The notes below the pieces were generated by a model. That model worked only from the letters and a program-made list of their open reading frames with translations, was not told where the DNA came from and did no database searches. Position numbers and translations under genes: made by a program. From positions 1 to 22,386 of the forward strand of contig PLCF01000078.1 of NCBI GenBank assembly GCA_003135555.1: DNA of 22,386 nucleotides, written 5' to 3'. Below are positions 156 to 14,823 of this stretch, piece by piece. The number at the start of each line of letters is the position of its first letter. The first letter of the stretch is position 1. The stretch comes from Vulcanimicrobiota bacterium (GTDB taxonomy: Bacteria > Vulcanimicrobiota > Vulcanimicrobiia > Vulcanimicrobiales > Vulcanimicrobiaceae).

Positions 156-763
156 CCGCGCAGTCTCCGCAGCGACTCGACATCAAGCAGAGGATCGTGT
201 ACAACGATGGCGCGCACGATGGCAAGGCCGATAACCGTGGCTATGAGCGCGTCGAAGGCCGTGCCGAGTTCGATCGGTTCGGGCAGACCCGGAGCCAACA
301 TCGATCCGGCAAAGCCGATCCCGATGCCAAGCACGAGCAATCCGACCATGTGCGCAAGCAGATTCCTGTGGACGATCAGCATCCCGACTCCGCACAAGAC
401 GACGAAGGCGATCAGGTCGGCCATGGGGACCGTTGCCACAGCCGGCAGACGCGTCACCATCTTGGCCAGCAGCGCGAACGCGATCACCAGCAGAAGACGG
501 CCGGGAAGAGGCATCGAAGGCCGCAGATCCGCGGCGGCCGGATTCGCGCGTACGAACAGCACGATCCCGAGGGGCGCCAGAACGACTTTGAGCAGCGTCG
601 CAACGGCGAACAGCGCAAAGGTTACAGGCGCAGCGAGGGCGGCGGTTGCATCCAGCGCGCCTACCATCACGGCAAGGACGACATAGGCGATCAAGACCTG
701 GAAGGTGCGCCCGTTCACGAGCAAGACCGCACCGGTGACGAGGACGACGAGGTCCATTGTCAC
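152..763 (-). CDS. hyfE: Hydrogenase-4 component E-like membrane subunit
   Basis: About 203 aa, multi-TM, ending in the HyfE-like tail DPLLDVESLRRLRG. GTG at 763 overlaps the hyfC TGA (GTGA); alternative ATG at 757. The ORF-track extension to 1015 overlaps hyfC and is not used. Confidence 0.8.
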   Translation of the reverse strand: MTMDLVVLVTGAVLLVNGRTFQVLIAYVVLAVMVGALDATAALAAPVTFALFAVATLLKVVLAPLGIVLFVRANPAAADLRPSMPLPGRLLLVIAFALLAKMVTRLPAVATVPMADLIAFVVLCGVGMLIVHRNLLAHMVGLLVLGIGIGFAGSMLAPGLPEPIELGTAFDALIATVIGLAIVRAIVVHDPLLDVESLRRLRG

Positions 764-1638
764 GCGAGCCCTCCCAACACGCGCAAACCGATGCTTGCCG
801 CAGCCAAGATCAACGCCGTGGCGAGCAGTTGCGGCACCTCGAAGAGCCGCAACTTCGCGAACAGCGTTTCGACGACGGTGACCGCGCCGATGAGGCCGAG
901 GATCCACGGCAAGTGCCGCCAGCCGTCCGCACCACCCGGAAGCAGCATCGCCGCCAGCACGAGGAAGCAAAGCTGACGGATGTAGCCGGCGTACTGAAGC
1001 ATCGCCAGTTGCCATCCCGAATATTCCAGAACCAGCCCCTCATGAATCATCGTGAGCTCGTAGTGCGTCTCTTGGTTGTCGATGGGAACGCGTGCGGTCT
1101 CAGCAAGCAGCACCAAGAAGAACGCCGCGAACGCAAGCGTTCCAGCGAGTCCAAACGGCACGTCCAGCAAGAACGAAAGGTGCGTCCCGTGACCTAAAAC
1201 GGCTCCGCCTAGGAGCGCGAGCAGCAGTGCAGGCTCGACGAGACTGCCGAACGTCATCTCGCGGCTGGCTGCCATCCCGGCGAAGGAGCTTCGGCTATCG
1301 AGCGCAGCGAGCGCAAGCACAAACCGTCCCAGAGCCAAGAGGAAGGCTAACGCGATGACGTCGACGATGCTGTCGACGGCGTTCGGCGTGACGATCGGCA
1401 GCAGCGAAGCGAAGGTAACGGCGACGCCGAGCGCGATCCCCGGAGCGATCAACGGTATCGGTGAGACGCCGTGCGGGAGCAGCGCCTCTTTATTCAAGAG
1501 TTTCGCCAAATCGCGATACGGTTGCAGCGCAGATGGTCCCGGACGGCCTTGCAAGTTCGCGCGCAGCCGCTTCATCACGCCCTGCACCAAAGGGGCGAGC
1601 GCGACGATCGACAGGACCTGGACGAGCAGCAGCATCAT
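760..1638 (-). CDS. hyfC: Hydrogenase-4 component C / HycD-like (NuoH / complex I subunit 1 family)
   Basis: Motifs QGRPGPSALQPYRDLAKLLNKE, FAGMAASRE, AETARVPIDN..THYELTMIHEGLVLEYSG. ATGA coupling with hyfB. Confidence 0.92.
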   Translation of the reverse strand: MMLLLVQVLSIVALAPLVQGVMKRLRANLQGRPGPSALQPYRDLAKLLNKEALLPHGVSPIPLIAPGIALGVAVTFASLLPIVTPNAVDSIVDVIALAFLLALGRFVLALAALDSRSSFAGMAASREMTFGSLVEPALLLALLGGAVLGHGTHLSFLLDVPFGLAGTLAFAAFFLVLLAETARVPIDNQETHYELTMIHEGLVLEYSGWQLAMLQYAGYIRQLCFLVLAAMLLPGGADGWRHLPWILGLIGAVTVVETLFAKLRLFEVPQLLATALILAAASIGLRVLGGLA

Positions 1639-3503
1639 CGAGCTAGCGCAACCGTGACGATCAGCGCGGCAACGGCGTAGGCGAGGTAGATCCGCAGACT
1701 CCCGCTCTGCACCAGGCGTGACCGGCGCGCGAACCGCAGGACCAGCGCCGCAAAGCGTCGGGCTACTTCATCGACGACATAGCGGCTTTCGGTCCGATAC
1801 AAGATTCGCTCCGGGAACCATCGTGACGATCCCATCTCGTAACGCCGCTGACGCTGGGGAAGCAGCACAAAGGCGAACACCGTGAGCAGCGGCTTGGAGA
1901 ACGCGGTGGCCGTATATTGCGCCGCCGCAGTGACCGGCGATCCGCAGGTCCAGGTTGGCACGCTGCGCACGCCACGCCGGGCCGCCATGACGACGCACAG
2001 GAGAGCACCGGCAAGCGGCAGCAGCGCCAACGTCGCCGGCAACATGGGAAGTGTCGGCGGAGTCAGCGCAACCAGGCCGAGCGTTTCTCTCACGACGCCG
2101 GCCAGTGGAACGACCGCAAGCGTAGGGACGACGCCGAGCACGATGCAGAGCCCGGCGAGAAGCCCGACTCCTACCGTCGACGAATCGAGCCGCTCGCGAA
2201 GCTGGGGGCGCGCACCTATACGTCGCGACCCGCCGAGGAAGACGACCCCGAAGACTTTGACGAAACAGGCGGCGGCGAGCCCTCCGGTCAGCGCGAGGCC
2301 CGCGATCGCTGCAACGAGTACGAACGTCGCCGTCAGGCCGCCGCCGAACGCGCCGCCGACCAGACTCTGAAAGGTCAGCCACTCGGAAGCGAATCCGTTG
2401 AACGGCGGCAGGCCGGTGATTGCGGCGCAGCCGATGAGAAAGAACGGCGCGGTCCAAACGAGCTCGCCCCAGAGACCACCAAGACGCTCCAGATCGACTG
2501 TGCCCTCCACCTCGTTGACGGTCCCGGCACCCAAGAACAGCAGCGCCTTGAACAAGCCGTGGTTGATCGTGTGGAACAGCGCCGCGACAAGCGCCAATCC
2601 CGCGAGAGCGGAGCTTCCGGCAGATCGTGCGAAAAGAGCGACGCCGATACCGATCACGATGATGCCGACATTCTCTACCGAGTGGTATGCGAGCAGCCGT
2701 TTAAGGTCGTGATCGACGAGGGCGTACAGGACGCCGCCGACGGCGCTGACCGTGCCGATCGCGACCAGCGCAATGCCCCACCAAGACGGCCCCGGGGCGG
2801 CGAGCTCCAGCGTGACCACGAGTAACCCGAACAGGGCGACCTTGAGCATGGCGCCCGAGAGCATGGCGGAGGCGCTCGCCGGCGCGACCGGATGGGCACG
2901 CGGCAACCAGAAGTGCAGCGGCATCAACCCCGCTTTGGAGCCGAAGCCGAGCAACGCGAAGACGAAGACCGTGTCGCGCAGTCCCGGCGAAAGCCGCGCG
3001 GCGTTTGCGGAAATTGCAGCAAATGACGTATCCCCGGCCGCCAGTGCGAGAAGCGTGAGCGCAACGAGCACGCAGAGCGCACCCGTCTGCGCGACGACGA
3101 GGTACGTGAAAGTGGCGCGTCGGACGCCGCGGCGCTCGTGGTGTGCGGCGACCAAGAATGCGGAGACCAGCGACATCGCTTCCCACGCAAAGAAGAAGAG
3201 CACCACGCTGCGGGCTACGAGTACTAAGAGCATCGACGCCGTGAAAAAGGCGATCAGCAATGGGTCGCGTGGCCCGCCCCGGCGCGTGCTCCACAGGGCT
3301 ACCGCCATCGCAAGAATCGCCAGAAGCGCACAGAACGGCGCGCTCAACGACGTTACGGCGAACGTCAGAGCCAGTGCCGGAACGTTCCCTTGGATCGTCT
3401 CAGCCGGCATCTCGGCGCCGTGCGCTCGAAAGCCGATCACGGCTACGGCGGCCGCGAGAAGGGCGACGACAAACGTCGCAACGAGACCGACCAGGCGAAG
3501 CAC
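1635..3503 (-). CDS. hyfB: Hydrogenase-4 component B / HycC-like proton-translocating subunit (NuoL/MrpD family)
   Basis: Motifs FFFAWEAMSL, GFGSKAGLMPLHFWLPRAHPVAP, DLKRLLAYHSVENVG, GLPPFNGFASEW, TWTCG..AQYTATAFSKP. Probable start GTG 3503 (the ORF is open to 3569). Confidence 0.93.
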   Translation of the reverse strand: MLRLVGLVATFVVALLAAAVAVIGFRAHGAEMPAETIQGNVPALALTFAVTSLSAPFCALLAILAMAVALWSTRRGGPRDPLLIAFFTASMLLVLVARSVVLFFFAWEAMSLVSAFLVAAHHERRGVRRATFTYLVVAQTGALCVLVALTLLALAAGDTSFAAISANAARLSPGLRDTVFVFALLGFGSKAGLMPLHFWLPRAHPVAPASASAMLSGAMLKVALFGLLVVTLELAAPGPSWWGIALVAIGTVSAVGGVLYALVDHDLKRLLAYHSVENVGIIVIGIGVALFARSAGSSALAGLALVAALFHTINHGLFKALLFLGAGTVNEVEGTVDLERLGGLWGELVWTAPFFLIGCAAITGLPPFNGFASEWLTFQSLVGGAFGGGLTATFVLVAAIAGLALTGGLAAACFVKVFGVVFLGGSRRIGARPQLRERLDSSTVGVGLLAGLCIVLGVVPTLAVVPLAGVVRETLGLVALTPPTLPMLPATLALLPLAGALLCVVMAARRGVRSVPTWTCGSPVTAAAQYTATAFSKPLLTVFAFVLLPQRQRRYEMGSSRWFPERILYRTESRYVVDEVARRFAALVLRFARRSRLVQSGSLRIYLAYAVAALIVTVALAR

Positions 3504-3736
3504 GACTATGCCTTGAGTAGGTCTTCGAGAACCGTCGTTCCTTGCCGCGGCGTGCGAACAAAGTCGCACCCGCGTGCCGTGCGGGACATCCCCCCGGTAT
3601 TCGCTCGAACGATACGGACCAGGCAGCCGCCTGGCGGGCTAAATCGTGCTGGACCGTAGGGCGCGCCACGCACGATGCCGCACGCGGTGACACGCGCTTG
3701 CACCAGAACGAACATCCGGGACGATGGTAGCCGGCG

Positions 3737-4390
3737 TTACGCGACTCGCAACACCTCGCTGATCGTCTTGCCATCCCAAATGAGGCGCCAGTCGTCGCGC
3801 TTTTCCATCGCTCGAACGACGCGTGGAATGAATATGCCGACGCATTCGCCGGCCGCGCGCCGTACGCTGGCAAAGAGCACGCCCGCGGCACCAGCGTCGT
3901 GAAGCTGTTGGCCCACGGCTTGCGCTGGCGCGTAGTCTTTGGGGTGATAGATCGACGCGTCGTGTCCGCGCACGTCGGCGACCTCTCCGTCCACGGTGAA
4001 CGTCCACAGCGCGAGAACAACGGTCGCCCCACCCGGCGCCCAAGCCGCCCGCAAACGCCGCGCGTGGTGATACGACACTTCAGCGACCGCAGTCGCGGCG
4101 CTCTCTGCGCCGTAGAGAACGCCGTAGCGCCCTGACGAGAACCGGCTTTGCGAGGGGCGCAGAAACGGCATCATGACGGCTGCGGCGCTGGGGCCGCGGT
4201 ATTGGGCGGCGGGCGGTAGCGCGGCGAAAGCGCCGGCAGCGTCCCGTGCGCGCGGATCGGTCACCGCAAGAACGTCGAGCAGAGACTGCAGGTCGTCGGG
4301 ATCGCCATCGACCAACGCAGCGAGCGCGGCGAGTTCAGCGCCGGGCCGTCCCGACAGTCGAAGTGCCGGCGCGAAGGGGCGGGCGTTCAC
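3737..4390 (-). CDS. RES-family toxin (putative NAD+ phosphorylase, MbcT/ParT-like)
   Basis: R-E-S signature: SRFSSGRYGVLY, TAVAEVSYH, GVLFASVR, plus YHPKDY. GTG start overlaps the antitoxin TGA. Confidence 0.9.
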   Translation of the reverse strand: MNARPFAPALRLSGRPGAELAALAALVDGDPDDLQSLLDVLAVTDPRARDAAGAFAALPPAAQYRGPSAAAVMMPFLRPSQSRFSSGRYGVLYGAESAATAVAEVSYHHARRLRAAWAPGGATVVLALWTFTVDGEVADVRGHDASIYHPKDYAPAQAVGQQLHDAGAAGVLFASVRRAAGECVGIFIPRVVRAMEKRDDWRLIWDGKTISEVLRVA

Positions 4391-4764
4391 CAGCCGACGC
4401 GCCAGCCCTCGACGTACCGACTGACGTCGACGAGATCACCGACGTTTCCGGCGAGCATGCGATCGAGAGGCGCAGCGTCGCCGAAATCCGCGTTCGGACG
4501 GCGTACCCAGTCGTCCGCCAGCGGCGACTCCCCAAGAATCGCGTGTAAGCCGCCGTAGATTCCGATCACGTACGAGAGGCGCTCGACCTGATCGCGCGTC
4601 AGGTCAGCAGCTGCGGCGTCGCTCTTCCAGCGGTCGATGGACCGCTCACTGGCCGCCAGGAGCGTGGCTCGTTGCGCTCGGTCGAGGCGCCAGGAGTCGG
4701 CGATGCGGAAGAAGCCCCGGAGCGCGCCGGAGGTCCTTGAACGGACGGGGGTGGGGACAGGCAT
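4387..4764 (-). CDS. Antitoxin, Xre/MbcA/ParS family
   Basis: N-terminal FFRIADSWRL..ATLL HTH. C-terminal ERLSYVIGIYGGLHAIL..ADDWVRRPNADFGDAAPLDRMLAG. AGGAGG RBS at 4773-4778, 8 nt before ATG 4764. Confidence 0.9.
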   Translation of the reverse strand: MPVPTPVRSRTSGALRGFFRIADSWRLDRAQRATLLAASERSIDRWKSDAAAADLTRDQVERLSYVIGIYGGLHAILGESPLADDWVRRPNADFGDAAPLDRMLAGNVGDLVDVSRYVEGWRVGW

Positions 4765-4777
4765 GGGTTCGGCCTCC

Positions 4778-4821
4778 TGAGTCTCGTGTCTCATTATAGC
4801 GCATTTCGCGCCACGAGTCAC
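4778..4821 (-). promoter_or_regulatory. Sigma70-type promoter and putative autoregulatory operator of RES TA pair 1
   Basis: GTGACT (4821-4816), 17 nt spacer, TATAAT (4798-4793). Imperfect palindrome TGAGacacgagaCTCA at 4778-4793 covers the predicted +1. Confidence 0.65.
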
Positions 4822-4917
4822 GCCGTCGCCCTTGCGAACGCGCCCTCGCTCGTCCTATTCAACGACACGAGCGTTGCGAAGACTCCTAACGCCGAGCCTA
4901 GCTCCAGCTGCAAACTC

Positions 4918-5637
4918 TCAGCCCTCGAGATCAGCTGGGCTGGCGCGAGCATTCGCTGCGACGGCGTGTAGCTGGTGGCGCGGCTCTTCGATCAATGCCC
5001 GCACATATCGATCGCCTGTAGCCTCGAGCTCGGCCGTTGCGCTGATGGTCGTTACCCGGCCATCGCGAAGAACCACGGATTCCCGGCAAAGCGCTACGGC
5101 GTCGGCGAGCACCGACGTCGCGAGGACGACGGTGCACTTCGTTCGCTCGACGTAGGATCGAACGAGCGAGCGCAGCGCCGGGCGTGCATCGGCGTCCACA
5201 TTGGTGAAAGGCTCGTCAAGGAAGAGCGCCCCAGGCTCGACGACCAGGGCTCGGGCGATGGCCAGGCGTTGACGCTGCCCGGTTGAGAGCGTCCGCGCGT
5301 CGGCTTCTCCCACATCGTGCAACCCCACATCGCCTAGCGCAGCGCGAGCACGCCGACGGGCGTCTCCCGCGCTGCCGCCGGCCACCGCAACGTAGACCGT
5401 CGCAACGTTCCACAGGACGCTGCCCCGCAGCACCGCGGGACGCGCGAAGACCGACGCCGAGCGGGCGGGCCGGTCGACCGAACCGGTTGCGGGGATCAAC
5501 CCGTGCAGCGCGAGCAGGAGCGTCGTCTTGCCGGCACCATTGGGGCCCAGCAGCGTCGTCCCACCCGAGCGCGCTTCAAACGTCGGAACGTCGAGCACGA
5601 ACGTTCCGCGCCGTGCGACCAGCCCGCGGGCGGTCAC
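4918..5637 (-). CDS. tupC: Tungstate ABC transporter ATP-binding subunit
   Basis: Walker A GPNGAGKT, signature LSTGQRQR, Walker B LFLDEP. GTG 5637 overlaps the tupB TGA; alternative ATG at 5643. Confidence 0.8.
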   Translation of the reverse strand: MTARGLVARRGTFVLDVPTFEARSGGTTLLGPNGAGKTTLLLALHGLIPATGSVDRPARSASVFARPAVLRGSVLWNVATVYVAVAGGSAGDARRRARAALGDVGLHDVGEADARTLSTGQRQRLAIARALVVEPGALFLDEPFTNVDADARPALRSLVRSYVERTKCTVVLATSVLADAVALCRESVVLRDGRVTTISATAELEATGDRYVRALIEEPRHQLHAVAANARASPADLEG

Positions 5638-6263
5638 GCCCATCGTCGCTGCAACGTCATCGCGACACCGGCGGCGACGGCCATGATCCCGAGCAGCATG
5701 GCGACATACGAGAATGCTGCTCCGAACTCGGCCCTACCAACGGCGAGCATCGTGGCCGTCGTGAGGATACGGGTTTGTTCTTCGATATTGCCGCCCGTCA
5801 TCTGCGCTGCACCGACCTCCGCAATAGCTCGCCCGAACCCGGCCAGGAGCGCCGCCGCAAGACCGGGGGCTACCTCGCGTGCGAGCAACACGAACCGGCG
5901 TGGACGGGGAATCTCCAGCCCGGCGAGCTGCATCGGCAAGGTCGTATCCGACGCGCGCAACGCGATGACGGCAAGCGTACCGATGAGCGGAACGACGATG
6001 ATGGTCTGCGCGAGTGCCATCGCGGCCGGTGTGTAGAGCACGTCCCACGACCCCAGCGGGCCGCTGCGCCAGAACGTGAATGCCACAGCGAGCCCGACGG
6101 CGACCGGCGGTAGCCCGAGCCCCGCCGTGAAGGCCACCAACAGCACGGTACGCAGACGCGACCGTCCGTGAACGATCCACAGTGCGCCGGGGATCGCGAA
6201 GACTGCGGCGACGAGCGTCGCCGCCGCGGAGACTGTGATCGAGAGCGCCGCGATGCCCGTCAC
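5634..6263 (-). CDS. tupB: Tungstate ABC transporter permease
   Basis: GLPPVAVGL, GPLGSWDVLYTPAAMALAQ, AGFGRAIAEVGAAQMTGGNIEEQTRILTT, all TupB-like. Confidence 0.88.
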   Translation of the reverse strand: MTGIAALSITVSAAATLVAAVFAIPGALWIVHGRSRLRTVLLVAFTAGLGLPPVAVGLAVAFTFWRSGPLGSWDVLYTPAAMALAQTIIVVPLIGTLAVIALRASDTTLPMQLAGLEIPRPRRFVLLAREVAPGLAAALLAGFGRAIAEVGAAQMTGGNIEEQTRILTTATMLAVGRAEFGAAFSYVAMLLGIMAVAAGVAMTLQRRWA

Positions 6264-6264
6264 G

Positions 6265-7086
6265 CTAGGGTCCTCTGCCGGCGTCCGGCGTGAACAGCGG
6301 TCGCCCGAAGCGCTCGCGACCGTAGGTCGCGATGATACCTTGGCCGGCCGGAGACGTCACGAACGCGGCGAAGGCTGCGCCACCGGTCGTATTGGAGATG
6401 CGTCCCGCGATCGGCTTGACGACGATGACGTGATAGGGATTCCGGAGATCCTTCGCGTCCTCGACGATCGGAACGATGGATAGCCCCGCTCGCTGCGACA
6501 GGTACGTCCCGTCGTCGGTCAGCGTGTACGCGGCCCGCTGCGAAGCGACGTGCAGCGTGTCGCCCATGCCGCTGCCCGTTTTGACGTACCATGTGCCGGA
6601 CGGCGTCACCGATGCCGCTTTCCACAGTGCAAGTTCCTTGGTGTTCGTTCCCGAGTCGTCACCGCGCGAGACGAACGCTGCTTGCGCACGGGCGATCGCC
6701 GCGAATGCCTCCTGCGCCGTTGCAATGCCCTTCACGTGGGCCGGATCGCCCGCCGGTCCGACGACGATGAACGCGTTGTGCATGACGAGCGCGCGGGCCA
6801 CTCCGCGGTCCTTCGCCATGTAGGCTTCCTCGGCGGCAGGCGCGTGCACCAGCAGCACGTCGGCATCACCGCGTTCTCCCATCGCGAGCGCCGCACCGGT
6901 GCCGACGGCGATGGTCTTGACCACGTAGCCCGACGCCTTTTCAAACGCCGGCACCAGGACGTCGAGCAAGCCCGTGTCTTGGGTGCTCGTCGTGGTCGCC
7001 AAAACGACGGCCGGGCCGGCCCGCGCCGGCGGCGCGACGAGGGAGACGCCCAGGATCAGGATCGACGCGCAGAGCCTTCGGAGCAT
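6265..7086 (-). CDS. tupA: Tungstate ABC transporter substrate-binding protein
   Basis: Signal peptide, TupA signature LATTTSTQDTGLL, VGTGAAL..GERGDADVLLVHAP, FVSRGDDSGT, NPYHVI. Confidence 0.92.
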   Translation of the reverse strand: MLRRLCASILILGVSLVAPPARAGPAVVLATTTSTQDTGLLDVLVPAFEKASGYVVKTIAVGTGAALAMGERGDADVLLVHAPAAEEAYMAKDRGVARALVMHNAFIVVGPAGDPAHVKGIATAQEAFAAIARAQAAFVSRGDDSGTNTKELALWKAASVTPSGTWYVKTGSGMGDTLHVASQRAAYTLTDDGTYLSQRAGLSIVPIVEDAKDLRNPYHVIVVKPIAGRISNTTGGAAFAAFVTSPAGQGIIATYGRERFGRPLFTPDAGRGP

Positions 7087-7470: not shown

Positions 7471-8214
7471 CTACTCGCGCAGCGCCTCGGGCGGACCGCC
7501 GCGGTTCCAGCGGATCGTCTCGGCGAAATCCGGCGGCTTGGGTGGGACAAATGCGGAGATGCCGCGGACGAACGTCTCGCGGTCGCTCGCCAGCAACGCC
7601 TCGTTGTGGCGTCGCTCGAAGCCGATGGTCGATGACGGTTTGCCGCTCATCGCGCGGCCGCACGGGCTCCCCGAGATATGCGCGGGGTAGACCTCGACGT
7701 AGTCGGGCAGGACCAGCAGCTTGTCGTGGAGCGAAGCGAAGAGTGCGGCGGCAGCCTGCTCCCCGCCGAGATCGGGCCGTCCGACGTCCCCGACGAACAG
7801 CGTGTCGCCCGTGAACACCAGCCACGGTTCTTGGGCGCGGCTCCGGTCGGTGACGAGGTACGAGACGCTTTCAGGCGTGTGTCCGGGCGTGTGCATTGCG
7901 CGGACGACGACATTCCCGAGCGACACCTCGGCGTCGTCGTCGAGTGGCGTGAACGCGTATCCGATCTCCGCGCTGCGATGGTAGTAGATCGGCGCACCGG
8001 TAGCCTCGGCGAGCGCACGGTCCCCGGATCGATGATCGGCGTGGACGTGCGTGCTCAGGATGGCTTCGATCCGCATCCCGCGATCACGAGCGATTTCGAT
8101 GTATTGAGCGACCTCGAACTGAGGATCGACGACCGCAGCGCGGCCTTCACCGCCTCAACCGAAGATGTACGACGCGCAGCCGGTTTCGGATCGAAGGAGC
8201 TGTCGGAAGATCAT
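7471..8214 (-). CDS. MBL-fold persulfide dioxygenase-like protein (ETHE1/CstB-type) with in-frame TGA at codon 20, probable selenocysteine
   Basis: ATG 8214 with AAGGTG RBS. MIFRQLLRSETGCASYIFG-(TGA)-GGEGRAAVVDPQ continues in frame into THVHADH, HTPGHT, FTGDTLF, GRPDL, YPAHISGSPCG. 247 aa with read-through. Confidence 0.85.
8120..8157 (-). promoter_or_regulatory. Putative bacterial SECIS element
   Basis: mRNA UGAGG CGGU GAA GGCCGC GCU GCGGUC GUCG AU CCUCA folds by eye into one interrupted hairpin. The apical loop starts with G, after a 15-nt spacer from the UGA. Confidence 0.6.
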
Positions 8215-8216
8215 GA

Positions 8217-9488
8217 TCAAACACCTTGAGGAGAAAGCGTGCGAGTCGACGCCAGCGTCTCGCGCATACGAACGGCGACGATCGCGCCGGAACCCAGCGT
8301 CAATGCAGCGACGACCGCGATGGCGGCGCTTTGTCCGAGCGCGTGCGCGACGATCCCGGAGAGGAGAGCGCCAAAGGCATAGCCGGAATCCCGCCACAGA
8401 CGGTAAACGCCCACGGATGAGGCGCGCACGAGCGGGTCGACGACGTCGCCGATCGCCGCGAGCAGCGTCGGATAGACCATGGCGGTCCCGACGCCGAGCA
8501 GCACCGCCGCCGCGAGCCACAGCGCGAAGTTGACCGGTGCCAGGAAGAGCGCGATCGCGACCGCCTGCGTCCACATGCCGGCCGCGATCATCCACTTGCG
8601 GCCGAGCCGGTCGGAAAGCGCCCCAGTGCCGAGCTGACACACGCCCCACACGACGGGATACGCTGCGGACAGGATCGCGATCCGCTCGATCGCGAGCCCG
8701 GCGGCGGCGAAATGCAGCGGCAGCAAGCCCCACGCCAGACCGTCGTTGAGATTGTTCACGAGCCCCGCCTGGCTGATCGAGGAAAGCGTACGATCGTTCC
8801 ACGAGACCCGCGCGAACAGCGCCGCGAACGACGAGCCGGCCACCGGACGCGGCGAATCCGCGCGCGCCGCCTCGAAGTGCGCGTGCCCCTGGGTCTCGTG
8901 CACGAAAAATACGGACAGCACCAGGGCGCCGAACACCGAGACGATCCCCAGGGCGAACGGCCACGGGCGCAGCCCGTACGCGGCGGCGATCGCGCCCGAA
9001 AGATAGGCGGCGACGCCGACCGCCAGATAACCGGCGAACTCGTTGAGCCCCATCGCGAGGCCGCGCTGTTTGGGTCCGACGAGGTCGATTTTCATCACGA
9101 CCGTCATCGACCAGCACAGGCCCTGGTTGATCCCCAGCAGCACGTTGGCGAGCACGATCCAGCCCCACGCCGGCGCGAACATCAACAAGAACGGAACGGG
9201 GATCGCGAACAACCAGCCTGCCACGAGCAGCGGTTTGCGGCCGGTTCGGTCGGCGGTCCGGCCGGCGTACAGGTTCGCGAGCGCCTTGGTGAAGCCGAAC
9301 GTGACGATGAATGACAGGACGGCCGTCTCCGAGACGAGCCCGAATACGCGTTGGCCGACCAGCGGCAGCACGTCGCGCTCGATGCCGACCATCGACCCGA
9401 CGAACGCGTTGACAGCGACGAGCAGCCAAAACTGCGTCGCGTTCGCGGCGAGACCGAGGCGAAGCGCTGAGGTCGCTTTAGCCGACAC
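8217..9488 (-). CDS. MFS transporter
   Basis: About 12 TM, motif A twice (GRTADRTGRKP, GALSDRLGRK), plus LGINQGLCWSMTV and GVYRLWRDSGY. Probable GTG start at 9488 overlapping the ArsR gene end. Confidence 0.9.
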   Translation of the reverse strand: MSAKATSALRLGLAANATQFWLLVAVNAFVGSMVGIERDVLPLVGQRVFGLVSETAVLSFIVTFGFTKALANLYAGRTADRTGRKPLLVAGWLFAIPVPFLLMFAPAWGWIVLANVLLGINQGLCWSMTVVMKIDLVGPKQRGLAMGLNEFAGYLAVGVAAYLSGAIAAAYGLRPWPFALGIVSVFGALVLSVFFVHETQGHAHFEAARADSPRPVAGSSFAALFARVSWNDRTLSSISQAGLVNNLNDGLAWGLLPLHFAAAGLAIERIAILSAAYPVVWGVCQLGTGALSDRLGRKWMIAAGMWTQAVAIALFLAPVNFALWLAAAVLLGVGTAMVYPTLLAAIGDVVDPLVRASSVGVYRLWRDSGYAFGALLSGIVAHALGQSAAIAVVAALTLGSGAIVAVRMRETLASTRTLSPQGV

Positions 9489-10164
9489 GCTGGACGTCGC
9501 CGCCCGCGGCGACCCACTCCGCCGGACCGAGCGAAAGCCGTGTCGCGTCCAGGCCGCGGCGGCGCAGCAGCGCGACCGCTTCGTCCGCGAAATCGCAGTA
9601 CGGTCCCCGACAGTACACGACGTAGCGCTTCGATCGAGGCAAGGCGACGTTGCCGGCCCGAAGAGCGTCGAGCGGGGCGCTGATGGCGCCGGGGAGATGC
9701 GCGGCGTCGTACTCCGCGCGAGGACGCGCGTCGAGTAACGCCGTCCGCGCGTCCGCGAGGGCGTCCCGTGCTGCCGCAATGGTCGGTATACCGGGCTCCC
9801 GCGCGCCGAAGTACGAGCGCTCTGCGTCTGCAATGGAGCCGTCCACGGCTTCCGCGACGGCGCGCAGCCCGACGAGGAGGCGGTACACGGCCGGCGCCGC
9901 GGCCCGGTAGTGGGCGAATGTTGCGCGGCGCTCGACCTCGACGAGACCGCACCGTGCCAGCACGCGGAGGTGCTGCGAGGCGTTCGCGACCGTAATGCCT
10001 GCCTCGGCCGCGAGGTCTTGGACCGTGCGCGGCCGTTGGGAGACGAGGTCGAGCAACTCCAGCCTATGCCGGTTCGCGAGCGCTCCCGGGACACGCGCGA
10101 CCGCGGCATAGACTCGGTCCTTGAATCGGCGCTTCCCCCGGCGGTCAGTCAGGCGCTCCGGCAT
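9478..10164 (-). CDS. ArsR/SmtB-family transcriptional regulator fused to a rhodanese domain
   Basis: ALANRHRLELLDLV..RTVQDLA..ANASQHLRVL winged HTH. Rhodanese LLDARPRAEY..HLPGAISAP..VVYCRGPYC. ATG 10164 lies 2 nt after the permease stop. Confidence 0.92.
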   Translation of the reverse strand: MPERLTDRRGKRRFKDRVYAAVARVPGALANRHRLELLDLVSQRPRTVQDLAAEAGITVANASQHLRVLARCGLVEVERRATFAHYRAAAPAVYRLLVGLRAVAEAVDGSIADAERSYFGAREPGIPTIAAARDALADARTALLDARPRAEYDAAHLPGAISAPLDALRAGNVALPRSKRYVVYCRGPYCDFADEAVALLRRRGLDATRLSLGPAEWVAAGGDVQRVG

Positions 10165-11639: not shown

Positions 11640-12218
11640 TCATTCGTCGTGACCCATGAGGCGGCGCTTCACCCATTGCGGCGTGGCGCCGACTTCGACG
11701 GGATACCACTGCGCGAACGGTAGGCGCTCCAGACGTGTAACGTGTCGAACGGCACGGTCGAAGACGACGAGTTCCTCGCCCTCGATGGAGATGTTCGTGC
11801 GGTCGGCCGCGTCGGCCGAGCGGCATGCAATGCCGTTCTCACCGCGCCCGTATGCGTTTTTGCCGATTGCCTGGCAGGGTCTCCACGACACGCCGACCGG
11901 GTACGTGAGCGGCAAACGAAGCGATTGCAGCCCGATATCGGTCGCGGCGTCGACGACCCGAATCGGCGTCACCGCGATGATCTGCAAGTCCGGGCGCTGC
12001 TCGGGGAGCAAGTCAAATAGCGTTGCGATCTCACCCTCATAGACTCGACGTGCATTTCCGGCGGCGACCGAAATCGTCGCGCACAGGTACAGCACGCCGA
12101 ACGAGCCGGCTGGATTCCATCGGCCGCCGTGGCGCTTTGCGAACGACGTGTCGAGTGGGTCCGTCCACGACGGGTCACACACGCGAAAGTGCAGCCCCTC
12201 GCGCTCAACGTGTCTCAT
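11640..12218 (-). CDS. RES-family toxin (second, divergent type)
   Basis: DPLDTSFA..GGRWNPAGSFGVLY, CQAIG..GIACRSA, EELVVFD. Lies downstream of an HTH antitoxin gene. Confidence 0.85.
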   Translation of the reverse strand: MRHVEREGLHFRVCDPSWTDPLDTSFAKRHGGRWNPAGSFGVLYLCATISVAAGNARRVYEGEIATLFDLLPEQRPDLQIIAVTPIRVVDAATDIGLQSLRLPLTYPVGVSWRPCQAIGKNAYGRGENGIACRSADAADRTNISIEGEELVVFDRAVRHVTRLERLPFAQWYPVEVGATPQWVKRRLMGHDE

Positions 12219-12780: not shown

Positions 12781-14823
12781 ATGAGCCTTTCCGTCGCGGG
12801 CGAGTTACCCCCGGCTGCGCCCACGCCGGCCGAGCGAATTGCGCCCTATCTGTCGATCGCGCGGGGCGTGATCTTCAACCGGATCTACGTGACGGCCATG
12901 TTCACGATCATCGCCGCCATCGGCAGCTGCGGTGTCTTCGCGATCGTGCGCAGCCAAGAGAGCACCGCGCTGGTCGCGCAAAGTTTCGAGAACGCGAACG
13001 ATGCCACCGAGATGCGCACCGCGCTGGATCGAGAAGACGTCGAGTTGCTCTCACAGATGCGCCAGCGCCAGGGCGTGGAGTCGGATCGGCTGGTCCGGGC
13101 GACGGAGATGTTCGACGCTGCAAACCTCGCGGTCCAGCGCGACGGCTGGGCCAGCAGCGAGCCGCTGCTCAAGACGCTGGGGCCGCGTCAGGCCGCGTTC
13201 GTGGACGACAGCCGGGAGATCGCGTACGCGCTCGCCACCGGCGACTACGCGCGAGCCGCGCGCATCGACGTCGAGCGCGTGGGACCCAACATCGGCGCGA
13301 TGCGGCATGCGCTCAATGCAATATCCGGCCGGCTGTTTCGCGCGAGCGTCGTCGGCGCGGCCGAGGACCGCCGGTTCATGGGGGACTTGCAGCGCCTCAT
13401 CGGGTTCGTCACGATGCTCGGCATGCTGCTGATGGCCGGCTTTGCGGTGCTGCTCCGCCGCTATAAACGTTCCGCGGATGCATCGGCGGCCGCGACCTTT
13501 GCCGCGCTCGAACAAGCGGCGCTTACCGACAGCCTCACCGGCCTGGGCAACAATCGGTCGTTCTACGACGACTTCGAGCGCGAGCTCGCGCGTGCCAAGC
13601 GCCACGCTCATTCGCTGGTTCTGGCACTGGTCGACGTCGACGACTTCAAGGCGGTCAATGATAAAGCCGGACACTCTCACGGCGACGCCGTCCTGGCGCG
13701 CCTGGGCGAGCGGTTGCGCACCCTGCGTCAGGAGGATCGCGGCTATCGCATCGGCGGCGATGAATTCGCGCTCATCCTGGTGGAGACCGAACCTGAAGCA
13801 GCGGCCTTGGCCCTGGAACGCCTGCAGGCCGAGCTCCGCGAGTCCGGGCTGGGCGCCACCGTGAGCATCGGCTACGTCAACCTCACCGCCGACCTGCTCG
13901 ACGCCGAGTCCTACGAGCTCGCCGACACCGCGCTCTATGAAGCCAAGCGGCTCGGGCGCAATCAGACCGTCTGCTTCGACGACATCAGTGGTACGGTGAG
14001 CGTGTTCTCTCCCCGCAAAGCCGACGCGGTTCGGACCATGATCGTGCAAGAACTGCTGACCACGGCGTTCCAACCGATCTGGGACATACACAGCACGCGG
14101 CCGCTGGGCTTCGAGGCCCTGGCGCGTCCGTTCCCGGAAGTCGGCTTGTCGGGTCCGCAGGAGGCGTTCGATGTCGCACAACGCATCCGGCAACTTCCCG
14201 AGCTCGACATGCTGTGCACGCGCAAGGCGCTCGAGGGCGCGGCCGCCCTCCCGGCCGGATCGACCATCTTCATGAACTATTCGCCGGCCTCGCTGACGCA
14301 CGCCGGCTTCGACCCGCAGCGCTTCGTCGCCACCGTGCGGGCAGCGGGCCTGTTGCCCGAGCAGATCGTCATCGAGCTCACCGAGCGCCGCATCGACGAT
14401 CCCGCAATCGTCGCCCAACGAGCCACCGCGCTGCGGGAGCTCGGCGTGCGCTTCGCGCTCGACGATACCGGAAGCGGTCATGCCGGGCTGGAGATCTTGA
14501 GCAAGGTGCGCTTCGATTTCGTCAAGATCGACCGCGGGCTCGTCGTCGAAGCGATGCACAACGGCGAAGCACGCGGCGTGCTGGCCGGGATCATCGCGAT
14601 CGCGCGCGAGACCGGGAGCTACTTGATCGCCGAAGGGATCGAGACCGCGGAGATGCTCGATTTCATCCGCAACGCGCACATCCCCAACTCCGTCGCCGTC
14701 CGCGGGATTCAAGGCTACCTGCTGGGCAGACCCGAGATCGGCGGCACCGATATGCTCTCCCTCGAGCGGCATCACGACTTTCTCGTGGCGCGCGAGCTCG
14801 AAAAGGACAACCTCGCGGCCTAG
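12781..14823 (+). CDS. Membrane-anchored diguanylate cyclase/phosphodiesterase (GGDEF-EAL)
   Basis: Two TMs flanking a helical sensor region. TDSLTGLGN, FKAVND..GHSHGD, I-site RQED, GGDEF. EAL domain EALAR, IELTE, LDDTGSG, VKID, AEGIET, QGY. Confidence 0.93.
   Translation: MSLSVAGELPPAAPTPAERIAPYLSIARGVIFNRIYVTAMFTIIAAIGSCGVFAIVRSQESTALVAQSFENANDATEMRTALDREDVELLSQMRQRQGVESDRLVRATEMFDAANLAVQRDGWASSEPLLKTLGPRQAAFVDDSREIAYALATGDYARAARIDVERVGPNIGAMRHALNAISGRLFRASVVGAAEDRRFMGDLQRLIGFVTMLGMLLMAGFAVLLRRYKRSADASAAATFAALEQAALTDSLTGLGNNRSFYDDFERELARAKRHAHSLVLALVDVDDFKAVNDKAGHSHGDAVLARLGERLRTLRQEDRGYRIGGDEFALILVETEPEAAALALERLQAELRESGLGATVSIGYVNLTADLLDAESYELADTALYEAKRLGRNQTVCFDDISGTVSVFSPRKADAVRTMIVQELLTTAFQPIWDIHSTRPLGFEALARPFPEVGLSGPQEAFDVAQRIRQLPELDMLCTRKALEGAAALPAGSTIFMNYSPASLTHAGFDPQRFVATVRAAGLLPEQIVIELTERRIDDPAIVAQRATALRELGVRFALDDTGSGHAGLEILSKVRFDFVKIDRGLVVEAMHNGEARGVLAGIIAIARETGSYLIAEGIETAEMLDFIRNAHIPNSVAVRGIQGYLLGRPEIGGTDMLSLERHHDFLVARELEKDNLAA

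Follow-up and report, generated by a model that had tools for sequence, protein, structure and literature searches.

A predicted selenocysteine form of CstB-type persulfide dioxygenase with an in-frame UGA at codon 20

We analysed a stretch of 22,386 nt (hereafter the window: contig PLCF01000078.1 of assembly GCA_003135555.1, from a Vulcanimicrobiota bacterium; contig C76 of the genome that we call G000), in which a gene of the metallo-beta-lactamase (MBL) fold on the minus strand, at 7471–8214, meets a TGA after only 19 codons. The question raised by this locus is whether that TGA ends a short upstream frame, marks a broken gene, or is read as an amino acid inside one longer protein. Our answer is that the gene is very probably one 247-residue selenoprotein, a CstB-type persulfide dioxygenase (PDO) of a sulfur-detoxification module, whose UGA is decoded by SelA/SelB/tRNA-Sec by way of an RNA element in codons 24–36. 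Judged from comparison of sequences, the stop-like codon 20 almost certainly encodes selenocysteine (Sec).

Reading frame and fold

The features that define the gene are as follows.

7471..8214, minus strand: predicted gene of a stand-alone CstB-type PDO, 247 codons with UGA(Sec) at codon 20 (from frame, homology and fold)
8222..8227, minus strand: ribosome-binding site AAGGTG, 7 nt 5′ of the ATG at 8214; GGAG in relatives
8176..8178, minus strand: codon of Cys13, kept in all Sec forms and in the nearest Cys forms, missing from proteobacterial short forms
8155..8157, minus strand: in-frame UGA, read as Sec20; the partner of Staphylococcus aureus CstB Cys20 in the alignment (from alignment and orthologs)
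8032..8052, minus strand: THVHADH metal motif, codons 55–61; in the alignment H56 pairs with the CstB Fe ligand H56
7660..7662, minus strand: Cys185 of GSPCG, which pairs with C201 of the CstB C201–G202 active-site loop; Cys in 116/116 relatives tallied

The start codon (ATG, 8214–8212) lies 2 nt past the TGA stop (8219–8217) of an upstream MFS gene. It opens 19 codons (MIFRQLLRSETGCASYIFG) that run into the TGA at 8157–8155, after which the frame stays open until TAG at 7473–7471, 247 codons in all. An earlier note, made from the letters of the window, had described this arrangement correctly, including the ribosome-binding site of the short frame. A plain listing of open reading frames (ORFs) holds just a 201-aa piece from M46 (7471–8076), which the note took to be truncated, with the missing piece supplying the first strands of the fold. 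This view has held: the Pfam Lactamase_B match of the read-through product extends over residues 12–179 and thus spans the TGA, and in an AlphaFold model built with 54 aligned relatives (mean pLDDT 93.6) the first two strands are residues 2–8 and 13–20, at pLDDT 95–96. The 19-codon upstream piece therefore belongs to the domain.

By sequence, the best solved relatives are 3tp9 (E 2.8e-48) and S. aureus CstB, 3r2u (E 6.6e-47), with ETHE1-type persulfide dioxygenases after them and glyoxalases II further down. Foldseek with the model gave the same ranking (TM 0.91 for 3tp9 and 0.90 for 3r2u, then 0.83–0.85 for ETHE1-type enzymes, glyoxalases II below the PDOs). Among the 54 aligned sequences, H56 and H112 never vary and D137 is kept in at least 90%; S183, C185 and G186 are likewise invariant and pair with the C201–G202 loop of CstB, so the CstB-like GSPCG cysteine announced in the earlier note is in place. 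C13 and U20 are found in the read-through protein along with C185. With its last residue at 247, the protein has no RHD and no rhodanese domain with the catalytic cysteine C408; Sec forms as a whole measure 238–249 aa. It is for this reason a CstB-type PDO domain and not an ortholog of CstB. In the scheme of PMC5702731, which uses a “type III” persulfide dioxygenase class, the sequence places the protein as a stand-alone CstB-type (type III) persulfide dioxygenase domain, with a predicted activity.

Codon 20 in relatives and the RNA element behind it

In a first search that returned 61 relatives, codon 20 was TGA in 13/13 loci of at least 51% identity that cover the codon, and Cys (8), Ser (5) or another residue (1) in 14 more distant, longer loci. 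A search over the phylum drew 401 Eremiobacterota genomes, and 31 of them matched with E no higher than 1e-60; the 13 loci of at least 52% identity that were newly fetched all carry U20, two other families included. This brings the Eremiobacterota total to 26/26 loci with UGA at the identical codon, from 25 genomes and three families. A scan with one genome per species found the TGA form in a Methylomirabilota bin too (L057), with selB in the same genome. In that phylum a single TGA was present in 64 of the 150 matches listed (93 further matches lie beyond these), that is, in at least 61 of 251 genomes; U20 is present in each of the 19 loci, out of 20 fetched, that cover the codon. The TGA occurs well beyond a single strain, a point on which the earlier note had made its proposal depend.

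Its other expectation, that homologs should show Cys or TGA at this column, is borne out by close orthologs (TGA) and by CstB, 3tp9 and 19/19 fetched full-length database relatives of 57–76% identity (Cys). We tallied 116 loci, leaving out 11 partial, frameshifted or duplicate rows. The 36 short forms have 26 Sec, 9 Cys and 1 deletion at column 20, and the 80 long, rhodanese-fused forms have 25 Cys and 55 other residues. Three unpublished genomes (G032, G260, G059) enter the relative searches, this tally and the tree, and a fourth (G628) is among the 61 of Methylomirabilota; no conclusion hinges on them. A quick tree neither showed nor excluded a single origin of Sec. Many Methylomirabilota genomes (e.g., G641, G549, G658, G657, G640) hold both a short TGA PDO and a long rhodanese-fused paralog, the latter with an open frame of ~460–520 aa and no TGA, so the two forms are not simple substitutes for each other. 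Three genomes of this phylum (G511, G507, G493) have two TGA copies. One genus-level ortholog (L033/L048, G009:C310) keeps U20, and near codon 145 its match passes from one frame to another, by either a frameshift or an assembly error.

Two explanations would make the TGA trivial. The first is a sequencing or assembly error, in favour of which one can say only that the source is a metagenome bin. Contigs assembled from runs of three independent peat-metagenome studies cover 8107–8451 and are identical to the window at 8155–8157, in reply to the doubt about read support voiced in the earlier note; their variants at 8148, 8149 and 8151 shift codons 22–23 toward the consensus of relatives. With TGA also in the 25 Eremiobacterota genomes and in 19/19 checked loci among the at least 61 TGA-bearing Methylomirabilota genomes, the probability of an error is vanishingly small. 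The second is that TGA is a genuine stop, so that the locus is a pseudogene, or a 201-aa protein from M46 with an unrelated 19-codon ORF upstream. Gene callers and databases do treat it so: 91 of the best 120 database hits are pieces of 192–220 aa, named MBL fold metallo-hydrolase or hydroxyacylglutathione hydrolase, and 4/4 of those fetched start after column 20. Against this, the upstream 19 codons are conserved as protein with normal synonymous change (0.44) and give the fold its first two strands. Both phyla have the TGA at one and the same column, and relatives with Cys at that column are full length. We regard a genuine stop as highly improbable.

If the codon is read, the means to read it should be in the genome, and the selA, selB, selC and selD genes called for by the earlier note are all present in G000. 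The genes selA (488 bits) and selB (278 bits) adjoin on contig C38, a tRNA-Sec with anticodon UCA is on C91, and selD (377 bits; C98:19906–20829, L010) itself has an in-frame TGA, reading SACAGUASK. A fragment of fdhA at a contig end (C59:177–971, L150) also has a UGA and reads QQARVUHGP. Clear hairpins lie 3′ of both UGA codons: GGUGGUC[AGUUU]GGCCGCC in fdhA; in selD, a hairpin at nt 13–27 followed by UGGCGCA[GGUCC]UGCGCCG. No member of NF049943 (Sec-type SQR) scored above its cut-off in G000.

Behind the UGA of the PDO gene the following elements were mapped.

8107..8145, minus strand: block of suppressed synonymous variation, codons 24–36 (0.112; 0.530 elsewhere in the gene)
8131..8145, minus strand: hairpin 1, GGCCGC[GCU]GCGGUC, nt 13–27 (U of UGA = 1); among family-level orthologs the stems are fixed and variation is limited to the third base of the loop
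8110..8127, minus strand: hairpin 2, GA(U)CCUC[AGUUC]GAGGUC, nt 31–48; loop of the same form as in the fdhA hairpin of G000

Bacterial selenocysteine insertion sequence (SECIS) elements of the Escherichia coli fdhF type lie inside the reading frame, no more than ~50 nt 3′ of the UGA, as stem-loops whose apical loop contains G/U. The PDO gene is alike in having a candidate stem-loop 3′ of the UGA in coding sequence, and differs in having two adjacent hairpins, with other hairpins in other clades. Hairpin 1 (stem from 9 nt, G-first loop 15 nt past the UGA) is the one that the earlier note saw after a 15-nt spacer and called SECIS-like. The hairpin is real and constrained. Hairpin 2, which lies 18 nt beyond it with a loop 34 nt past the UGA, has its loop in common with the fdhA SECIS of G000 and is a SECIS candidate at least as good as hairpin 1, and the best one in our view. 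Which of the two acts as the SECIS is something we infer. Since hairpin 1 is placed alike in selD and in the PDO gene, one may speculate that it brings hairpin 2 closer to the UGA.

The constraint was measured as pairwise synonymous diversity over 20 published family-level Sec forms, in which the hairpins read GGCCGC[GCN]GCGGUC and GA(U)CCUC[AGUUY]GAGGUC. Codons 24–36 give the lowest value of 226 windows, and the next lowest non-overlapping window stands at 0.381. The variable sites of the block are loop positions (third base of codon 26, third base of codon 33), and one G-to-A change keeps its pair (G·U to A-U). Cys clades have no such dip over the same codons (0.536 vs 0.565 elsewhere, n = 5; 0.70 vs 0.41, n = 2). 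An AGUUY loop on a stem of at least 4 bp, between +16 and +45, follows 54 of the 70,939 TGA sites of G000; ten of these are in open frames, and among the ten only fdhA and the PDO gene translate like proteins.

Other clades have other hairpins. Group A of Methylomirabilota has GUCUAC[GGUC]GUAGAC, whose GGUC loop fits the fdhF type, and group B, together with one Eremiobacterota family, has GCUGUGG[UGGAU]CCACAGC. Across codons 26–32, synonymous diversity is zero in the independent Methylomirabilota clade with the latter hairpin (n = 15). All these clade-specific hairpins are built within one conserved peptide (AVVDPQ).

In peat metagenomes, word depth over 8079–8189 rises from ~30–45 to 400–760 behind the UGA, carried by 71-nt contigs. 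This seems to be the invariant candidate SECIS block, common to many co-occurring strains and collapsing into one unitig.

A UGA may also be read through as Cys or Trp, by near-cognate or suppressor decoding. Sequence data do not chemically tell Sec from Cys insertion, and hairpin 2 is weak. Such a reading does not fit with a complete Sec machinery and two classic selenoprotein genes in the same genome, with a nucleotide constraint 3′ of the UGA that is limited to TGA forms, or with the loop shared with the fdhA SECIS; moreover, TGA ends other genes here, e.g., the upstream MFS gene at 8219–8217. We consider it very unlikely.

Several observations count against Sec decoding or weaken the case for the RNA element. 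G000 is a bin, 84% complete with 3.3% contamination, and its Sec machinery is on other contigs than the PDO gene. The comparison of AGUUY loops was picked after the fdhA hairpin had been seen. Folding energy is ordinary (z = 0.20 for 71 nt; z = −0.93 for nt 13–48), and hairpin 2 reaches −4.4 kcal/mol, compared with −10.7 for fdhA and −12.8 for selD. A scan of 8050–8220 with Rfam found no family, only a chance snoRNA match (E 1.7). Base-pair covariation was absent because stems do not vary within each clade, and support for the element comes instead from the constraint and from the clade-specific hairpins. In an RNA run (X9), the PDO locus matched only short, mostly ill-fitting pieces of 90–95% likeness. 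Finally, one short Cys-type relative (L056, Myxococcota bin, match 3001–3690) lacks 11 residues including column 20 (AAY...VVDP), through either a natural deletion or an assembly fault.

Gene neighbourhood and enzyme class

Upstream of the PDO gene, on the same strand, we find three further genes.

8217..9488, minus strand: MFS transporter gene directly 5′ of the PDO gene (start approximate)
9478..10164, minus strand: ArsR-type helix-turn-helix (HTH) fused to a rhodanese domain with a CRGPYC loop
10167..11309, minus strand: ArsP_1-family permease, head of the same-strand row

The PDO gene is the last of this row, and the ArsR-rhodanese protein is likely the regulator of the module. None of the MFS, ArsR-rhodanese and permease genes received a specific name from NCBIfam. 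Among 13 other loci examined, a short PDO (Sec or Cys) stands beside an MFS gene in 11 and an ArsR-rhodanese gene is present in seven, with a divergent LysR gene instead in two; for four family-level loci the flank was just 1.5 kb and the view ends at the MFS gene. At L059 an MFS gene is hit only on the other strand, ~170 nt upstream. Less favourable to a conserved pairing is L065, where the only MFS_1 hit is an ORF at 3357–5054 that overlaps the PDO gene (3001–3729) by ~370 nt, leaving adjacency uncertain.

The locus L065 comes from a cultured organism, Thiomonas sp. FB-6. Its row (273–6178) consists of a pyridine-nucleotide disulfide oxidoreductase, an ArsR-rhodanese protein, the PDO in its Cys form, MFS, and a YeeE/YedE-type sulfur transporter, and is a fuller version of the PDO module.

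The protein might be a selenoprotein but not a persulfide dioxygenase, acting instead as a glyoxalase-II-like thiolesterase or on arsenic or selenium compounds. It passed no NCBIfam model, and the best named one was GloB (TIGR03413), with 86.4 bits, far under the cut-off of 200.8. An ArsR-family regulator and an ArsP_1 permease in the row, and methyltransferase genes beside two Cys forms, would also suit such an activity. What speaks for a dioxygenase is that CstB-type enzymes are the closest solved relatives in both sequence and fold, followed by other PDOs, with glyoxalases II scoring lower; that the CstB-specific Cys-Gly loop is invariant; that the regulator carries a rhodanese (sulfane-sulfur) domain; and that the Thiomonas Cys form adjoins a sulfur transporter gene. 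A different enzyme is unlikely on this evidence, and it is the rival to which we give most weight.

The stretch directly downstream of the PDO gene (4918–7086, minus strand) encodes a TupA-like tungstate-binding protein (202 bits; equivalog cut-off 400) as well as a permease and an ABC ATPase, which might provide formate dehydrogenase with W. On either side of the region is a RES-domain protein, the toxin member of RES-Xre pairs (3737–4390 and 11640–12218, both on the minus strand). The more distant neighbours are ordinary: a GGDEF-EAL protein (12781–14823, plus strand) and NADH dehydrogenase/antiporter-type membrane subunits (760–3569, minus strand).

Possible role of Sec20, novelty and closest known systems

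The mechanism that we envisage would begin with insertion of Sec at UGA codon 20 by SelA/SelB/tRNA-Sec, steered by the RNA element in codons 24–36. The product would hold mononuclear Fe at H56, H112 and D137 and carry the CstB-specific Cys-Gly loop (C185–G186); its gene would be co-transcribed with the MFS transporter and the ArsR-rhodanese regulator as a module for reactive-sulfur detoxification.

What Sec20 would do there can be approached through CstB. According to PMC12934615, the CstB Fe ligands are H56, H119 and D145; C201, on a mobile loop, is persulfidated, oxidised at Fe to an S-sulfonate and moved ~27 Å to the persulfidated rhodanese cysteine C408, with release of thiosulfate. The same text describes CstB C20 as a reactive cysteine, persulfidated or sulfonated, “significance unknown”, places it ~29 Å from the Fe of the opposite protomer, and draws it beside the C201 loop of another subunit. 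Short forms have no C408, and position 20 is in them strictly Cys or Sec; on these grounds we tentatively propose that Sec20 serves the C185 adduct as a nucleophile, relaying sulfur or resolving the adduct, and probably acts across a subunit interface. Sec20 would attack the oxidised persulfide (S-sulfonate) on the mobile C185 loop, the job of the rhodanese Cys408 in CstB. The selenolate of the neighbouring subunit would first take the sulfane sulfur and then attack the Cys185-loop S-sulfonate. By this analogy, Sec20 might possibly be a second active site standing in for the rhodanese in rhodanese-less CstB-type dioxygenases, a proposal that we hold with considerable doubt.

In the model, U20 lies at the far end of strand 13–20. 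A rhodanese cysteine could also be given in trans by the adjacent ArsR-rhodanese protein; alternatively, Sec20 may merely load sulfane sulfur. A direct role at the metal was ruled out, given the position of U20 at the strand end and the ~29 Å between CstB C20 and Fe, and what is left is the relay by analogy. We also set aside the intrachain redox pair implied by the C13-x6-U20 arrangement of the earlier note. Both residues exist, but the model sets them at the two ends of a single beta-strand (13–20 by DSSP), which makes an intrachain selenenylsulfide unlikely, and C13 is missing in proteobacterial Cys forms.

If Sec20 does act as such a relay, a single small protein would achieve through selenium what in CstB falls to a fused rhodanese domain, and the persulfidated and sulfonated Cys20 of CstB would be accounted for. 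Even apart from this mechanism, position 20 is flagged as functional because Sec marks chemically important residues, and its CstB counterpart is a modified cysteine called of “unknown significance” in recent structural work (PMC12934615).

The Sec forms of the PDO very probably make up a new selenoprotein family inside a known enzyme class, and the gene is real and conserved. The family is missing from the catalogues of selenoproteins that we examined, a comparison that the earlier note had asked for. Table 1 of a 2026 review (PMC13188914), with 119 families, has no MBL-fold, PF00753 or dioxygenase entry; the word “Lactamase” is absent from the main texts of the GOS 2008, ISME J 2016, deep-Sep 2025 and BSepDB 2026 papers; and full-text literature searches for MBL-fold selenoproteins found only SelTryp. 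An O2-dependent iron dioxygenase of sulfide detoxification would thereby be added to the selenoproteins. Two abundant uncultured phyla of soil and peat carry the Sec PDO in many genomes, while public databases record only N-terminally truncated “hydrolases”. The different hairpins within one conserved peptide should also be useful for SECIS models, which miss atypical elements.

Among known systems, the cst operon has CstR, TauE, CstA and SQR as its partners. The operon partners here differ, being ArsR-rhodanese and MFS. S. aureus CstB, a PDO fused to rhodanese domains (3r2u; PMC12934615), shares the MBL fold, the Fe ligand positions and the Cys-Gly loop (C201–G202 vs C185–G186), and both proteins have a cysteine-type residue at position 20. 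CstB has the RHD/rhodanese domains and Cys408, none of which is found in the PDO described here, and the latter has Cys13 in addition. Position 20 is Sec here, strictly Cys or Sec in short forms (with one deletion) and variable in long forms. The best match overall, the beta-lactamase/rhodanese protein 3tp9 of Alicyclobacillus acidocaldarius (41% identity), has Cys at U20; it is a 474-aa fusion with rhodanese domains and an uncharacterised structural-genomics entry.

ETHE1 and the other type I PDOs (4chl, 4ysb, 2gcu) have stand-alone size, the same fold and the Fe triad in common with it. They differ in having Asp, not Cys, at the U20 column (4ysb alignment) and glutathione persulfide as the substrate, and, according to PMC12934615, they are without the CstB-type Cys-Gly loop. 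SelTryp of Kinetoplastida, as described in PMC1557815, is likewise a selenoprotein that joins an MBL-fold domain with sulfur-transfer chemistry, in its case two rhodanese domains; it is eukaryotic, has its Sec in a C-terminal CxxU tail outside the MBL domain and a eukaryotic SECIS, and is not an ortholog. In the selenoproteins of sulfide and sulfane-sulfur pathways (Table 1, PMC13188914), Sec replaces Cys as it does here, while folds and families differ.

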